Below are positions 10,620 to 39,609 of a stretch of 64,000 bases of DNA, in pieces. The notes under the pieces were generated by a model. It made no database searches. It saw only the letters and a program-made list of their open reading frames with translations, and was not told the DNA's origin. Position numbers and translations under genes: made by a program. Source of the stretch: Escherichia coli (GTDB lineage: Bacteria > Pseudomonadota > Gammaproteobacteria > Enterobacterales > Enterobacteriaceae); assembly GCF_022846255.1 (NCBI RefSeq), contig NZ_AP025682.1. One strand, given 5' to 3'. The first letter of the stretch is position 1. The number at the start of each line of letters is the position of its first letter.

Positions 10620-10644
10620 GATAACGATAATTAATTTCATTATC
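10620..10644. promoter_or_regulatory. Fur box in the divergent entS / fepD promoter region
   Basis: gataacgataattaatttcattatc is a Fur-consensus-like AT-rich hexamer array; it abuts the first ATG of the fepD track ORF. Confidence 0.7.
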
Positions 10645-12650: not shown

Positions 12651-13462
12651 CCGAATCAGTAGCCCGTTTGCGCGGCGAACAGTTAACCCTCGGATATGGC
12701 AAATATACCGTTGCGGAAAATCTGACTGTAGAAATACCTGATGGTCACTTCACGGCAATTATCGGGCCAAATGGCTGCGGTAAATCCACGTTACTGCGTA
12801 CCTTAAGCCGCCTGATGACGCCTGCTCACGGGCATGTCTGGCTGGATGGCGAGCACATTCAACATTACGCCAGTAAAGAGGTTGCACGCCGGATTGGTCT
12901 GTTGGCGCAAAATGCTACCACACCGGGCGATATCACTGTGCAGGAGCTGGTGGCGCGTGGGCGTTACCCGCATCAACCGCTGTTTACCCGCTGGCGCAAA
13001 GAAGATGAAGACGCGGTAACAAAAGCGATGCAGGCCACGGGAATAACTCATCTGGCGGATCAAAGCGTGGACACCCTTTCTGGCGGACAACGCCAGCGAG
13101 CGTGGATCGCGATGGTGCTGGCCCAGGAAACGGCAATTATGCTGCTCGATGAACCCACGACCTGGCTGGATATCAGTCATCAGATTGATTTGCTGGAACT
13201 GTTAAGCGAACTGAACCGCGAGAAAGGCTATACCCTGGCGGCGGTGCTGCACGATCTTAATCAGGCCTGTCGTTACGCCAGCCATTTGATTGCATTGCGG
13301 GAAGGGAAAATTGTTGCTCAGGGAGCACCGAAGGAGATTGTCACTGCTGAACTGATCGAGCGCATTTATGGTCTGCGCTGCATGATTATTGACGATCCGG
13401 TTGCCGGAACGCCGCTCGTGGTGCCGCTCGGACGAACGGCACCTTCAACCGCAAAGATTTAA
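12647..13462 (+). CDS. fepC: Ferric-enterobactin ABC transporter ATPase
   Basis: MTESVARLRGEQLTLGYGKYTVAENLTVEIPDGHFTAIIGPNGCGKSTLLRTL...; Walker A GPNGCGKST, signature LSGGQRQR; the ATG at 12647 overlaps the fepG TGA; the track ORF 12329..13462 is an out-of-context extension. Confidence 0.93.
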   Translation: MTESVARLRGEQLTLGYGKYTVAENLTVEIPDGHFTAIIGPNGCGKSTLLRTLSRLMTPAHGHVWLDGEHIQHYASKEVARRIGLLAQNATTPGDITVQELVARGRYPHQPLFTRWRKEDEDAVTKAMQATGITHLADQSVDTLSGGQRQRAWIAMVLAQETAIMLLDEPTTWLDISHQIDLLELLSELNREKGYTLAAVLHDLNQACRYASHLIALREGKIVAQGAPKEIVTAELIERIYGLRCMIIDDPVAGTPLVVPLGRTAPSTAKI

Positions 13463-14592
13463 ACTAAGTGGTCTGCCATCATGGCATCCTGTTTTCTGGA
13501 TGCCATCGCATGACGCAACAGCACACCACCACAAGCCACCATCCCGCCGATCAACGCGGAAAGGATCACAATAATAGCCTTACCCGGACCATCTTTTTTC
13601 ACTGGCAATGACGGTCTTAACTGATATTTAAACGGCGTAAAATTCACATCGTTGATATTTGCTTTTGTTAACTGCTCAACAAGATACTGGCGATTACGTA
13701 ATTCGCCGTTCAGTTCCGCAACGTCAGTAACCGCTTTTTCAATTTCCAGTTTGCGTTCAATACCGTCTGCGCCGAGAGAAATAGAGAAATCGGGGTCATC
13801 TTTAACGGCCTGACCATTACTGTATACGGGCTTTTTAATTCCTGCCGCGTTGGCAATGTCGAGTGAATAATTGAGGCGCTGAATGTTTGCATCAAGTTGA
13901 TTTTTCATTTTAATGCGGTCCTGAGCCAGTTTTGCTTTTTCAAACTGGGTTTTGATCTCCAGTTTATTACGGACGTTTTCTATCGACTCTTTCACCACCA
14001 ACACAGAGATATAATCGATATACCCGCTCAAAACGGTCTGCGCCTCTTCACTGGTTGGCGCGGTAAAACTTAGCGTCCAGGAGGTATACAGTGACGGTTC
14101 ATCTTTTTTCTTACTGGCATTGTCATCAACCGCTTTCATTTTTTCGCTCAATGCGACAATTGCGCGATGCAAATCCAGTTCGTCGATTTTCGCCTCTTTT
14201 AATTGGTCCATTACATAAGGTGATGAGCGCAGGTACTCTTCTAGTAAGCTAACAGACTGAAACTTCTTGATAAACAGGTTAAATGCACCGCCACGGTCGA
14301 TATTAACATCGAGATCAAGAACGCGGAGTTTGGTAAAGGTTTTCTCCAGGTCCTGCCACTGAATGGCTTCGGCGGGAGTAATGACGGCTGAGCTGGTCCA
14401 TTTTTGCGGCAGGATGAAAGAGATCAGCAAGCCTGCGCAGGCAAACGCAAAAACGACCGCCATGATCGTTTTTTTGGCCCGCCATAAAACTTCAATTAGA
14501 CTAAGTAAATCAATTTCATTATTACTGGGCGACGCCAGAGGATACTCGGGAAAATGAGCTTCACTTCCCTGTTTAATATTCAGTGATGACAT
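13459..14592 (-). CDS. fepE: Polysaccharide co-polymerase (Wzz family) FepE
   Basis: MSSLNIKQGSEAHFPEYPLASPSNNEIDLLSLIEVLWRAKKTIMAVV...; two transmembrane segments flanking a coiled periplasmic domain; start trimmed to give 377 aa. Confidence 0.9.
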   Translation of the reverse strand: MSSLNIKQGSEAHFPEYPLASPSNNEIDLLSLIEVLWRAKKTIMAVVFAFACAGLLISFILPQKWTSSAVITPAEAIQWQDLEKTFTKLRVLDLDVNIDRGGAFNLFIKKFQSVSLLEEYLRSSPYVMDQLKEAKIDELDLHRAIVALSEKMKAVDDNASKKKDEPSLYTSWTLSFTAPTSEEAQTVLSGYIDYISVLVVKESIENVRNKLEIKTQFEKAKLAQDRIKMKNQLDANIQRLNYSLDIANAAGIKKPVYSNGQAVKDDPDFSISLGADGIERKLEIEKAVTDVAELNGELRNRQYLVEQLTKANINDVNFTPFKYQLRPSLPVKKDGPGKAIIVILSALIGGMVACGGVLLRHAMASRKQDAMMADHLV

Positions 14593-14759
14593 GGGGTATA
14601 ACCTGAAAATGAGTCCAATAAGAGTAAATCTCCACGGCCCCCACTCTACCAGTTGGTGAGATTTATCCGAAGCTGAAGTTTGTAAATTACTCCCACTGAA
14701 TGCAACATTCACTCTATTTCAGAGAAATACCCACCAAATTTATAAATTAAACAAATGAT

Positions 14760-14792
14760 AAACCCATAATTATTTTCTGTAATTATGGGTTT
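14760..14792 (-). terminator. Perfect 13-bp inverted repeat with a 7-nt loop just downstream of the entF stop; candidate terminator or attenuator between entF and fepE
   Basis: Direct reading: aaacccataatta-ttttctg-taattatgggttt; on the minus strand it is followed by a T-rich stretch. Confidence 0.4.
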
Positions 14793-14807
14793 ATAGATAA
14801 TATAAAT

Positions 14808-17800
14808 TTACTTATTTAGCGTCGCACGAATAATCGGCCCAATTTTTTCAAACGCCACCGGAGAGATAATATCCACATGCGCACAATCCTGACGATAGAT
14901 ATCCAGCCCAGCAATCCACGGTGCCCAGGCCTGTTCAGGAGTCATACCTTCCTGAAGCGTGCGTTCGGCAACAAATAGCGTCGCTTTACCATCAAACGGT
15001 ACGCTATGAGCTGTCGTCAGCAGGCGCACAGCATCAGCGTAGTTGCCTTCAATGGTGGTAAACAACTCCGTTGAAGTACTTCCCTGCTGTGCCGCCAGGA
15101 AGGCTTCGCGCTCGCGGTTAATCTCCGCCAGCACTTCCGGGTCCAGACCATTGGCTTCTTTTTCCTGCCAGTTTTGCGTTTCTGGCGGCCAGGTATCCAG
15201 CAAGCCAAGAAATGCCACCTGTTCGCCACGGGCACGCAGTCGCGCCGCAATGCCCTGCGCCAGCGTACCGCCCAGCGAATAACCCAGCAGGTAATATGGG
15301 CCGTGCGGTTGTTGTTCAAGTAACGTTGCCAGATGCGCTTCGCAGACTTCATCCAGATTTGCTGACGTCTGCATGGGGCCATGAGGGCGCGGCGACTGAA
15401 TGCCGATAATCGACCATTGTGGATCGAGATAACGCGAGAGCACGCTGAACTGCCAGGCAAAACCGGATGCCGGATGGAAACAAAACAGCGTCGGACCATT
15501 ACCTTCACGCAACGGCAGAATGGTTTCGAATCCCATGCGCTGGGTGCTGTCTTCTTCACCATCAATAATCGTTGCCAGTTTGGCGACAGTTGACGCGACC
15601 ATCACCTGCCCCGGCGTCACCTGACGAGCAAACTGTCGACTTAACTGCGCTGCCAGTTTCATTGCCAGTAGCGAATGACCGCCAAGCGCAAAGAAATCAG
15701 CATCGGCATCCTGCACGTCACAACCCAGCAACGACGAGAATGCCGCGGCGATAATCGTTTCACTGCCCGCTTTCGGCGCACGCCCCGGCGCTTGTGCCTT
15801 CAGTTCAGGCAACGGTAAGGCTTTGCGATCCAGCTTGCCGTTGGCGCTAAGTGGTAACTGTGGAAGTTGCAGCAGAACCACCGGTACCATATGTGGTGGC
15901 AATGTTTCACGAAGCTGCGCCTGTAATGCGCTGGTATCCAACGGCAGACCTGATTGCGACACCAGATAGCCCACCAACTGACGCGCATCACCACCAGTGG
16001 CTGCCGCCTGGTTAATCACACAGGCGTGGGTAACGGCTTGTTCGACATCCGGCAGCGCCTGCATCACGCGATCAATTTCGCCCAGTTCGATACGCTGCCC
16101 GCGAATTTTTAGCTGATCGTCACTGCGCCCGAGGTACTCCACCGCGCCGTTATCCAGCCAGCGGGCCACATCGCCGGTACGGTACATCCGTTCACCTGGG
16201 GCAAAAGGATCGGCAATAAAGCGGCTGGCGGTCAGATCGGGTCGTCCAAGATACCCCTGCGCCAGTTGAATACCGGTGAGATAGAGATCTCCCGCCACAC
16301 CCGGCGGCACCGGATGCATCATCGCATCGAGAATGCGCAGGCCCGTATTCCACACCGGATAACCGATCGGCACACTGCTGCCGCGCACCTCTGCCAGTTC
16401 CTCGCCAAAAGCCGGATACCAACTGACATCTACCGCCGCTTCCGTCGGGCCATATAGATTATGCAACGGCGCGCCGGTTAACTGTTGCCATTCGCGGCAT
16501 AAATCAGCCGGTAAGGCTTCACCACTACAGAAAACCTGTTTCAACGTCGCGCAACTCTGGCGAGCGGTTTGCGGCGTCAGCGATGCAACAAATGCCGCCA
16601 GCATCGACGGCACAAAGTGCGTGGTCGTTACGCCATAATCAGCAAAAAAATGCTGCATAGCGAGCGGGTCGCGGTGCGCTTCCGGTTCAGCCATCACCAG
16701 TTTCGCCCCGGCAATAAACGGCCAGAAAAACTCCCACACCGAGACATCAAAACTGCACGGCGTTTTTTGGGCAACGACATCTTCGCCTGTAAGCGGGTAA
16801 TGGTTTTGCATCCAAAGCAGGCGATTAACGATAGCCGTCTGCCCGACCATTACCCCTTTTGGTCTGCCGGTGGAACCGGAGGTGAAGATGATATAAGCCG
16901 TGTGGTGCGGTTGTGAAAGCTGCAGCGGCGCACTGCCCTGTGGGGTAAGCGGGGCGTTATAGCAAAGGCTGGTTAAATTAGGGATATCGCTAAAGCGCGG
17001 CAGTTGATCGTCAGTGGTGATTAACAGCGACGGACGCGCATCTTCCAGCATCATTTTCAGGCGATCGTCCGGATAGCCGGTATCCAACGGTAGCCAGGCC
17101 GCACCAGCTTCAACTATCGCATGTAGCGCCAGGGTCAAAAAGACCGAGCGCGGTAGAGCCACCGCCACGCTGTCGCCCGGTTTAACGCCGCGCTCACGCA
17201 GCAGATTCGCCAGCGCCACCACCTGCTCGCGCATTTCCCGATAGCTGAACTGGTAACGCGCATCTGCCAGCGCCGGAGCATCCGGTGTTTTTGCCGCTTG
17301 TTCTGCCACCAGCGCGCTCAGCGTGGTTTCTGGAATCTCAACCTGAGTGGCGTTGATCTGCGCCAGCTGCGCATACTCGCCTGGCAGCATAATATCGACA
17401 TCGCCGCACAACAGCGACGGATCCGCGGCGAACTGCGCAATCAGCATTTTCAGGCGTTCAGCGTGTTGAATTAACGTTGGCTCATCGTAACGCTGTTTAT
17501 TGGCGAGGATCTCAATACTCAAATCACCGTGTTCATCCGGGAACAGGGCCAGTTCAAGGTCATTAACCGGACCGGTTGCCAGGGTATGGGTTTGCGCCTG
17601 AACACCAGGAATATCCAGTTGGTAATCAAATACCTTGATATTGAGTACCGGACCGAACAGCGGTTCCTCTCCCGCCGCGCGCCCGCTGTCACGGACAATT
17701 TGTTCGGCATCGTAACGTTGATGGCGACGCATTTTTTTCAGTTGAGCCGCCAGTCGGGTTGCCAGTTCTGGTAGCGTTTCTTGCGCCGCAATGTGAATAC

Positions 17801-18689
17801 CCAACGGCAAAACGTTGAGCACGGGTCCGGTAGCCGTCAGCGCCGCCGAGCCCAGTCGACGCATAAAGATAAATCCGGCAGCGTAGTCCATGCGGTTGCA
17901 CAATCGCCCCAGCCACAAGGCTGCCAACGCAAGTGCTAAATCGGTACGCTGCACACCTGAAAGTTGCGTAGCCAGCTGGCGGAATTCCCCGTTGGTAAAT
18001 TCCAGTTTCAGGCGCAAAATATCTGCCGAAGCGCTGCGCCCCGGTAAAGGTGCCGGAGAAAGTGACGCGGGCGGTGGTAGTTGACGACGCTGTTCCGCCC
18101 AGAATGCCGCATCACGCTGCCAGGCTTCACTTTCGCGGTACTGCTGATACTCTTCCACTACATCAGCGAAAGGCGTAAACGGCGAAGCAGGCGTTGGTTC
18201 GCCACGCAGCAATGCGCAGTAAATGTTGGCGATCTGGCGTGTAATGGCCGGGAAACTGAAGCCATCGACCAGCAAATGGTGATAACGCTGATACCAGTAC
18301 CAGCGGTTATCCGCCACCTGTATCAGTTGATGAAAGACCAGTGGTTTACCACTATCGACGCGCAGATCTTGTTGCAAATCCGCCTGCATTAATGCCCGCG
18401 CAGTACCGTGCGGATCAATGTTGGTTCGCAGGTCGATAATTTCTGGCAGTTCGAACGTCTGCGCATCATCGACCCACTGCCAGACTTCGCCGTTATCTTC
18501 CGTAAAACGCATCCGCAACGTATCTGCTTGCGCTAGTCCGGCAACCACCGCGCGGGCCAGTAGTGGCGCATCAACCTCTCCGGTTAACTCAACGTAATGC
18601 GCCACGCTCCAGGCGGAGGGTAAATCCGACAGTTTTTCTGCCATCCAGATGCCGGGCTGTGCGGCGACCAAAGGTAAATGCTGGCTCAT
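14808..18689 (-). CDS. entF: Enterobactin non-ribosomal peptide synthetase (C-A-PCP-TE, serine-activating)
   Basis: MSQHLPLVAAQPGIWMAEKLSDLPSAWSVAHYVELTGEVD...; condensation, adenylation (SGSTGRPKG), carrier and thioesterase regions; start trimmed to give 1293 aa and overlap the ybdZ stop. Confidence 0.95.
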   Translation of the reverse strand: MSQHLPLVAAQPGIWMAEKLSDLPSAWSVAHYVELTGEVDAPLLARAVVAGLAQADTLRMRFTEDNGEVWQWVDDAQTFELPEIIDLRTNIDPHGTARALMQADLQQDLRVDSGKPLVFHQLIQVADNRWYWYQRYHHLLVDGFSFPAITRQIANIYCALLRGEPTPASPFTPFADVVEEYQQYRESEAWQRDAAFWAEQRRQLPPPASLSPAPLPGRSASADILRLKLEFTNGEFRQLATQLSGVQRTDLALALAALWLGRLCNRMDYAAGFIFMRRLGSAALTATGPVLNVLPLGIHIAAQETLPELATRLAAQLKKMRRHQRYDAEQIVRDSGRAAGEEPLFGPVLNIKVFDYQLDIPGVQAQTHTLATGPVNDLELALFPDEHGDLSIEILANKQRYDEPTLIQHAERLKMLIAQFAADPSLLCGDVDIMLPGEYAQLAQINATQVEIPETTLSALVAEQAAKTPDAPALADARYQFSYREMREQVVALANLLRERGVKPGDSVAVALPRSVFLTLALHAIVEAGAAWLPLDTGYPDDRLKMMLEDARPSLLITTDDQLPRFSDIPNLTSLCYNAPLTPQGSAPLQLSQPHHTAYIIFTSGSTGRPKGVMVGQTAIVNRLLWMQNHYPLTGEDVVAQKTPCSFDVSVWEFFWPFIAGAKLVMAEPEAHRDPLAMQHFFADYGVTTTHFVPSMLAAFVASLTPQTARQSCATLKQVFCSGEALPADLCREWQQLTGAPLHNLYGPTEAAVDVSWYPAFGEELAEVRGSSVPIGYPVWNTGLRILDAMMHPVPPGVAGDLYLTGIQLAQGYLGRPDLTASRFIADPFAPGERMYRTGDVARWLDNGAVEYLGRSDDQLKIRGQRIELGEIDRVMQALPDVEQAVTHACVINQAAATGGDARQLVGYLVSQSGLPLDTSALQAQLRETLPPHMVPVVLLQLPQLPLSANGKLDRKALPLPELKAQAPGRAPKAGSETIIAAAFSSLLGCDVQDADADFFALGGHSLLAMKLAAQLSRQFARQVTPGQVMVASTVAKLATIIDGEEDSTQRMGFETILPLREGNGPTLFCFHPASGFAWQFSVLSRYLDPQWSIIGIQSPRPHGPMQTSANLDEVCEAHLATLLEQQPHGPYYLLGYSLGGTLAQGIAARLRARGEQVAFLGLLDTWPPETQNWQEKEANGLDPEVLAEINREREAFLAAQQGSTSTELFTTIEGNYADAVRLLTTAHSVPFDGKATLFVAERTLQEGMTPEQAWAPWIAGLDIYRQDCAHVDIISPVAFEKIGPIIRATLNK

Positions 18690-18904
18690 TGTGCCTCCTG
18701 CAACTGGGTGAAATTCGCCGGTGTCAGAGTACGCCAGTGGGCTTCCAGCCACTGCAGGCAGGACGCCTGTGACTGCGGCTGACACACAACGTCCCAGCCT
18801 GCCGGTAAGGCGCATTGTTGCGGCCACAGACTGAATTGCCCCTGCGCATTGCGCAAAATGTAAAACGCTCCCTGTGGATCATCGAAGGGATTACTGAATG
18901 CCAT
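18686..18904 (-). CDS. ybdZ: MbtH-like protein
   Basis: 72 aa, MAFSNPFDDPQGAFYILRNAQGQFSLWPQQCALPAGWDVVCQPQSQASCLQWLEAHWRTLTP; MbtH signature; immediately upstream of and overlapping entF. Confidence 0.9.
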   Translation of the reverse strand: MAFSNPFDDPQGAFYILRNAQGQFSLWPQQCALPAGWDVVCQPQSQASCLQWLEAHWRTLTPANFTQLQEAQ

Positions 18905-26523: not shown

Positions 26524-26552
26524 CGCCTTTGCGAAAAAATCTTCTCGCAAAG
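26524..26552 (+). terminator. Hairpin downstream of the regulator gene; candidate intrinsic terminator
   Basis: cctttgcgaaaaaatcttctcgcaaagg forms a 9-bp stem; the 3' flank is not strongly T-rich, so strength is uncertain. Confidence 0.35.
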
Positions 26553-26646
26553 GCGCTTGCTTAAAAATCCTTTAATATCAATAAACTGAAATGATTCAAC
26601 AATCCTGTTTCTCGAGGCTTTCTCACCCTGTCACCACGCTTCTAAG

Positions 26647-29410: not shown

Positions 29411-29456
29411 TCCCAGGTCGTTGCGCCCTCACAATGAGGGCGCAGAGGAGAATATT

Positions 29457-34739: not shown

Positions 34740-34990
34740 CTTTCCAGACCTCAGAGTAAACCTGAAACCGGAAAGCTTCAGGCACCCGCAGTTATCTTAC
34801 CCTTCCTTAGCAAAATAGCTGTTTATTTATACAGTGAGTCCTGTTTAGGACTTTTCACCTGTATTATCGCCCATGCCAGTAAAACGAAATCGCCCGCAGC
34901 CATCTCTGACTGCGGGCGAAAGTGTAAAGCAGGTGCCTTACCATCCTGACCTGACAACCGGATATGCGGGGATTACTCCCCGCACAACGG

Positions 34991-39556: not shown

Positions 39557-39609
39557 TTAAAAAAACCGCTCTCATCGAATGGATGAGAGCGGCTTTCAGA
39601 TTGTTGACA

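Follow-up and report, generated by a model that had tools for sequence, protein, structure and literature searches.

A conserved hairpin behind entF of Escherichia coli as a probable leaky intrinsic terminator upstream of fepE

The stretch of Escherichia coli DNA analysed here (64 kb, referred to as the window) contains entF and fepE, both on the minus strand. An earlier note, made from the sequence alone, had drawn attention to a perfect 13-bp inverted repeat between these genes and had proposed that it either terminates or attenuates the fes-ybdZ-entF transcript, or acts as a protein-binding site controlling fepE. The repeat, aaacccataatta-ttttctg-taattatgggttt, is present at 14760-14792 when the plus strand is read, and its position was correctly described: it lies directly past the entF stop codon and ahead of the fepE promoter. 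Because both genes run on the minus strand, the RNA that matters has the reverse-complement sequence. The 301 nt around the palindrome are 100% identical to strain FDAARGOS_536, and the RefSeq annotation of this identical DNA places the palindrome between entF and wzz(fepE); the hairpin itself carries no annotation in RefSeq. The palindrome region was found in 5409 of 5426 complete E. coli genomes and is single-copy (median of one place per genome). The features of the spacer are collected in Table 1. At the other end of fepE, the minus-strand fepE and the plus-strand fepC converge, and their ORF ends overlap by 4 bp (window 13459-13462), which leaves no space for a terminator between them. 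The fepE-fepC gap in Salmonella and Citrobacter is 50-90 nt.

Table 1. Features between entF and fepE, with positions in the window.
Feature	Position	Strand	Basis or remark
entF stop codon TAA	14808..14810	-	ORF 14808..18827; RefSeq annotation of identical DNA
Hairpin 5' arm AUAAACCCAUAAUUA	14780..14794	-	starts 13 nt past entF stop; pairs kept across 21 orthologues
Hairpin loop CAGAAAA	14773..14779	-	sequence and length (3-11 nt) vary among orthologues
Hairpin 3' arm UAAUUAUGGGUUUAU	14758..14772	-	inverted-repeat search, fold
T/U-rich tract TTTATCATTTGTTTAATTT	14744..14762	-	begins directly after GGG of 3' arm
Counterpart of H-NS footprint, TTTGGTGGGTATT	14726..14738	-	2 mismatches relative to TTTGCTGGTTATT; 20 nt past hairpin; outside hairpin
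Inferred fepE -35, TTCGGA	14671-14666	-	invariant alignment block; overlaps RcsB box
Conserved RcsB box TCGGATAAATCTCA	14670-14657	-	counterpart of Salmonella box
Inferred extended -10, TGgTAGAGT	14643..14651	-	TG 14651-14650, -10 14648-14643; invariant T-G-n-T-A-n-n-n-T columns
fepE (wzz-fepE) start codon ATG	14590..14592	-	

The 13-bp repeat is real, and its complementarity extends two further bases on each side, giving 15-nt arms that are 100% complementary and enclose a 7-nt loop. No other perfect inverted repeat with a loop of 3-10 nt in the 64-kb window is as long. In 100 dinucleotide-preserving shuffles of the window, repeats with arms of at least 13 nt occurred at a mean of 0.01 per shuffle, and the longest arm obtained was 13 nt. 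The surroundings are AT-rich and of low complexity, with further short AT-rich inverted repeats near the palindrome. The arm sequence has no second copy within the 64-kb window; with one place per genome and no further copy in the window, a dispersed repeat of the REP/BIME or MITE type was rejected. The only other perfect short-loop inverted repeats in the window have arms of 10-11 nt (26524-26555, 29422-29444, 34890-34919 and 39566-39592); each of the four is rich in G and C and probably another terminator.

On the minus (sense) strand, the sequence reads AAG TAA ATTTATATTATCT-ATAAACCCATAATTA-CAGAAAA-TAATTATGGGTTTAT-CATTTGTTTAATTT, where CATTTGTTTAATTT is the T-rich tail. An A-rich stretch 5' of the stem pairs with the first U residues. 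A sense RNA of 91 nt folded with a minimum free energy of -19.5 kcal/mol (z = -3.0), and the hairpin alone, in the window allele, with -15.3 kcal/mol. The stem is AT-rich, with only three G-C pairs (CCC/GGG) of 15. These three pairs form the base of the stem if the U-tract is taken to start after GGG, as in the K-12 layout; the window allele adds five A-U/U-A pairs below them, and the first five bases of its U-rich tract double as stem-closing bases. The minimum-energy fold also contains an outer AT-rich helix flanking the hairpin, which was disregarded; the K-12 sequence, by inspection, does not keep it. A terminator consensus scan of 14300-15100 called a single site, which is the hairpin on the minus strand. 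An Rfam scan of the same segment at a permissive E-value returned chance matches only (at most 22 bits, against gathering scores of 47-160).

Terminator strength was estimated with the score of d'Aubenton-Carafa, computed approximately with ViennaRNA energies, so that its zero threshold is only indicative. Positive values were obtained for K-12 (+13.6), S. enterica (+13.6), C. koseri (+12.5), E. albertii (+10.9) and the allele of EcN and CFT073 (+7.1). The window allele scored -22.8, a low value due to its interrupted U-tract, and several Citrobacter alleles were also negative. The run of about 7-9 U expected 3' of the stem of an intrinsic terminator is found in K-12, Salmonella, CFT073/EcN and C. 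koseri. A simple terminator scan did not call the hairpins of CFT073 and Salmonella; the Salmonella hairpin was probably missed because greedy extension of the stem through G·T pairs uses up the T-run. The terminator is thus convincing in general, and looks weakest in the window allele.

The hairpin exists in several forms within E. coli. In K-12, the same 13-bp stem ends in GGG and is followed by UUUUUUAUUU (TTTTTTATTTGTTT), a textbook layout that the scan also calls. The window allele, which is of B2 type and represented by 679 genomes at 99% identity or more, and an O157-like genome read GGGTTTATCATTT. The T>A change that completes the "perfect" 15-mer palindrome interrupts the U-tract, part of which is turned into stem, leaving A and C interruptions relative to K-12. 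In this tract (UUUAUCAUUUGUUU) U occupies six of the first nine positions, and the scan still accepts the site. With the interrupted U-tract as the basis, the window allele is probably leakier than that of K-12.

A third allele, found in EcN, CFT073 and ST131-type strains, occurs in 517 of the 5426 complete genomes. It lies in a segment of strong divergence that takes in the 3' end of entF, a 246-nt spacer and fepE and is at least 99% identical among its 517 genomes. Its hairpin occupies the same place with different bases (AAAACCATAATC-CGACTAAAT-GATTATGGTTTT, then TTTATTC), with two G-C pairs, a 9-nt loop and a run of seven U. The segment (L002:2730-3045, L073:20255-20520 and L070:1254-1503, counterparts of window 14590-14850) is close to a metagenomic Escherichia contig (L070), and looks like a recombinational import.

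Conservation was then assessed between genera. The EntF C-terminus, used to scan one genome per species, did not recover Salmonella, Klebsiella or Enterobacter; FepE homologues then brought in Salmonella and C. koseri. The loci compared came from Escherichia spp., E. albertii, E. marmotae, S. enterica, S. salamae, C. koseri, about 12 other Citrobacter species and several genera without fepE. All the entF-to-fepE loci examined have a hairpin and a T-rich tail 10-40 nt past the entF stop. In Escherichia, Salmonella and most Citrobacter, including C. koseri and the C. freundii group, the hairpin behind entF keeps the same register, although the spacer flanking it is unalignable between genera.

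The hairpin alignment (21 sequences, nearly ungapped, a helix of 15 pairs) has standard pairs in 92.4% of its cells, against 38-54% when the 3' partner is slid by one to three columns. Five pairs have changed on both sides, such as A-U to C-G, or C-G to U-A, A-U or G-C, and compensatory changes are counted at four to five positions. The covariation score was 0.383 against 0.176 for shuffled alignments and was reached in none of 500 shuffles, a count that is not a probability given that the sequences are related; the control with a slid register agrees with it, and so do compensatory events that arose independently in separate lineages. RNAalifold, run independently, predicted 13 of the pairs. 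The core CCATAAT/ATTATGG is nearly invariant across the three genera, and a T-rich run follows the stem in all 21 orthologues (4-8 T in the first 9 nt past the core), the weakest being those of C. braakii and Citrobacter On2M.

In the C. amalonaticus group, an unrelated GC-rich hairpin (CCCCCGTAAC...GTTACGGGGG) with a T-run stands at the same place, about 20 nt past the entF stop in three loci (L009-L011) and about 40 nt in a fourth (L030). The position has thus stayed fixed while the terminator itself was exchanged. In genera that lack fepE, the stretch from entF to the following gene holds other GC-rich hairpins; that gene, where it was located, is fepC on the opposite strand. The conserved feature is a hairpin with a T-run behind entF, as is characteristic of intrinsic terminators, and it is the structure that is maintained rather than the sequence.

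Single-sided changes in the stem indicate on which molecule selection acts. A G·U pair keeps the RNA helix on the sense strand, but on the opposite strand it becomes an A·C mismatch, and the dyad symmetry of the duplex DNA is lost. When the 21 sequences were read in the entF sense, G·U accounted for 38 cells of the stem and A·C for two, so that nearly all one-sided changes are to G·U. Between S. salamae and S. enterica there are two stem changes, both to wobble pairs. Moreover, the sense-strand hairpin is more stable than that of the opposite strand in 14 of the 21 sequences. The excess of G·U points to selection on an RNA structure in the entF sense, and argues against both a DNA operator and an element of the antisense strand. 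A bidirectional terminator was likewise rejected, since the tail on the plus strand contains few T, no gene converges on the site, and the G·U pairs become A·C on the plus strand.

Downstream of the hairpin, aligning the 130 nt that precede the fepE ATG brings out an invariant TTCGGA-N17-TAGAGT block, with TG in front of its -10, in E. coli, Salmonella and Citrobacter, about 50-80 nt upstream of the ATG. The spacing of its extended -10 to the Salmonella fepE start site is consistent with a promoter, and this block is likely to be the E. coli fepE promoter. The Salmonella version of this block, TCGGATAATTCTGA, has been validated as a box bound by phospho-RcsB and spans -36..-22 relative to the SalCom fepE start site (PMC7913699). 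In EHEC, a fepE promoter fragment alone drives gfp, and H-NS represses fepE with a DNase I footprint, TTTGCTGGTTATT, in the promoter region (PMC8669466). In an O157-like genome TTTGCTGGTTATT is found 20 nt past the hairpin, and a footprint of H-NS on the palindrome itself was therefore rejected. An RcsB box on it was rejected as well, this box being located at the fepE -35, about 88 nt away. The known protein contacts are thus beside the palindrome, not on it.

Two further observations concern this spacer. A short palindrome, TGAATG-TTG-CATTCA (window 14697-14711, minus strand), is conserved in the K-12, B2 and O157-type alleles and partly in E. albertii, whereas Salmonella and Citrobacter have another conserved block, AATTCCGAATAT, at the aligned position; the palindrome may be a regulator site. 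One S. enterica genome carries an IS element (L067:51-1500, with a DDE_Tnp_1 transposase of 326 aa) that splits the entF hairpin from the fepE promoter block, bringing the distance between terminator and promoter to about 1.2 kb.

Databases and papers list fes-ybdZ-entF-fepE as a single operon. The published expression data display a step between its last two genes. In CFT073, which carries the orthologous EcN-type hairpin allele, RNA-seq of a fur mutant relative to wild type gave fold changes of 388 for fes, 158 for ybdZ, 294 for entF and 4.92 for fepE, so that Fur-dependent expression drops about 60-fold from entF to fepE; the only Fur ChIP peak listed for the operon is in the fes/fepA promoter region (PMC7157518, Table S1). 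In ExPEC O78-9 exposed to iron-poor serum, fes, ybdZ and entF were induced and fepE was not; fepE was induced separately, in a complement-dependent manner (PMC4145685). Microaerobic relative to aerobic growth of E. coli gave log2 fold changes of -5.04 (fes), -4.96 (ybdZ), -3.10 (entF) and -1.69 (fepE) (PMC8910356), and the induced iron genes listed in a K-12 pressure study include fes, ybdZ and entF but not fepE (PMC6049941). In the divergent operon, the same CFT073 comparison gave 274-fold for fepA and 9.8-fold for entD (PMC7157518, Table S1), which suggests another internal terminator or attenuator between these two genes.

The weak response of fepE to Fur indicates that termination is incomplete. 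The transcriptional insulation of fepE from entF is thus strong but incomplete, and the drop is not placed to the nucleotide by these data. It could alternatively result from Rho-dependent termination within the spacer, which is untranslated, or the fold change of fepE could be diluted because its promoter has a high basal level. The Term-seq and TRS supplements (Adams 2021; TRS 2023) contain no rows for entF or fepE, and our literature search found no described entF terminator.

Altogether, we consider it probable that the palindrome is a leaky Rho-independent terminator closing the fes-ybdZ-entF transcript upstream of a separately promoted fepE. The proposal of a terminator or attenuator made in the earlier note is supported by the hairpin with its T-rich tail, the covariation across genera, the strand-specific G·U pairs and the published Fur-dependent drop. 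The palindrome would give the entF mRNA a stem-loop in its 3' untranslated end. An RNA polymerase that had started at the Fur-controlled fes promoter would transcribe the 3' arm and pause on the U-rich tract; the hairpin would form in the exit channel, and most transcripts would be released about 50-60 nt past the entF stop. We infer that the 3' ends form at the tract 14744-14762. The same hairpin would then protect this end of the entF mRNA against exonucleases. Read-through by a minority of polymerases would leave fepE with a weak iron response, most of its transcription starting about 110 nt further downstream at its own promoter, controlled by RcsB and H-NS.

A different role for the same RNA structure is unlikely but deserves discussion. 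The hairpin could mark or stabilise the 3' end of the entF mRNA without terminating transcription, with Rho stopping the polymerase downstream, possibly assisted by H-NS bound to the AT-rich spacer, and exonucleases trimming the transcript back. The AT-rich stem, the interrupted U-tract of the window and its negative approximate score are compatible with this explanation, as is an untranslated, AT-rich spacer to which H-NS binds in EHEC. Covariation and G·U asymmetry, for their part, suit any hairpin of the sense-strand RNA. However, a pure stability element needs no T-rich run, and this run is kept in the 21 orthologues and in the C. amalonaticus replacement. Most alleles score as terminators, and the spacer is poor in C, which is unfavourable to Rho loading. 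The conserved T-run and the C-poor spacer make stabilisation with Rho less likely than intrinsic termination.

The other function suggested in the earlier note, a protein-binding site controlling fepE, found no support. As a DNA operator, the palindrome would be bound by a dimeric transcription factor, Fur or another regulator. A perfect 15-bp palindrome within a regulatory spacer is what such an operator could look like, the CCATAAT/ATTATGG core hardly varies over three genera, and hexamers of the ATAAT type vaguely resemble Fur half-sites. Nevertheless, we regard this as very improbable. The best match to the Fur consensus is 12/19, a background level reached by 162 sites in the window, whereas the true Fur boxes of entS-fepD and fepB-entC reach 15-16/19 (10620-10644, 8177 and 8292), and Fur ChIP-seq in CFT073 lists a peak for the operon at fes/fepA only (PMC7157518). 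The variation observed also disagrees with an operator: the stem changes keep RNA pairing yet break the DNA palindrome, the spacing between the arms is not fixed (Table 1), and in C. amalonaticus the sequence is wholly replaced with hairpin and T-run retained. Finally, the mapped H-NS and RcsB contacts lie downstream of the palindrome, which is itself about 110 nt upstream of the fepE promoter -10.

Less probable again is that CATAAT in the 5' arm is the -10 of a second, upstream fepE promoter, whose transcripts, starting in the loop and lacking the 5' arm, would escape termination. A consensus scan does find TTGCCA-16-CATAAT in CFT073 and TTAACA-17-CATAAT in Salmonella, both at 10/12, and in the window lists ATTACA-17-TATCAT across the hairpin; but 1.2-1.7 such matches are expected by chance per AT-rich stretch of this kind. 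By inspection, the window, K-12, S. salamae and C. koseri do not keep the -35, and there is no TG extension. The sole fepE start site cited from SalCom is the downstream one (PMC7913699), and such a promoter would leave the conservation of the 3' arm and the T-run unexplained. Finally, a functionless palindrome arising by chance is barely credible: AT-rich, low-complexity surroundings with other short AT-rich repeats nearby would favour it, but arms of this length are almost absent from the shuffled windows, and compensatory conservation extends from Escherichia to Salmonella and Citrobacter despite unalignable flanks.

A leaky terminator followed by a separate promoter accounts for the weak response of fepE to iron. 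Sequence and published expression fit two units, an iron-regulated fes-ybdZ-entF and a fepE transcribed from a promoter of its own under RcsB/H-NS control. For a well-known locus, this gives a finer view of the operon and is useful for annotation and for engineering or interpreting the expression of fepE, a determinant of very-long O-antigen and serum resistance. It is conceivable, although rather unlikely, that the hairpin is a tunable attenuator whose leak sets the effect of iron starvation, through derepression of the fes promoter, on FepE and very-long O-antigen. The alleles contrast in the relevant features: an uninterrupted U-tract in K-12, a longer stem with a broken U-tract in the B2-type window and O157, and a short stem with U7 in EcN/CFT073. 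Such variation in U-tract and stem among E. coli lineages could tune the iron-starvation leak into the O-antigen chain-length gene; if the attenuator is true, natural alleles would lead to lineage differences in the coupling of serum and iron stress to O-antigen length. The CCATAAT/ATTATGG core may also have a dual role, for example as a contact for a protein or for sRNA/Hfq.

With regard to known systems, the element most resembles the leaky intra-operon intrinsic terminators of Enterobacteriaceae. It has in common with them an RNA stem-loop and U-rich tract just past a stop codon, an A-rich stretch before the stem that pairs with the first U residues, compensatory and wobble conservation on the transcribed strand, and a large but incomplete drop in expression. 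It differs from typical intrinsic terminators in its long (13-15 bp), AT-rich stem with only three G-C pairs, and, in the window, in a U-tract broken by A and C. With the Fur box, the 19-bp GATAATGATAATCATTATC operator of the ent/fep cluster, it shares an AT-rich dyad, ATAAT-like hexamers and a location inside the Fur-regulated enterobactin cluster. However, it matches the consensus at only 12/19 positions, has a 7-nt gap between its arms instead of a contiguous 9-1-9 or hexamer array, coincides with no listed Fur ChIP peak, and varies in a way that keeps RNA pairing, not DNA sequence. Extragenic palindromes of the REP/BIME type are similar in lying in a 3' untranslated region, where they could stabilise the upstream mRNA; unlike them, the entF palindrome is single-copy, AT-rich rather than GC-rich and without the REP consensus. 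Thus, the entF terminator would be an ordinary member of a well-known class and would involve no new mechanism.
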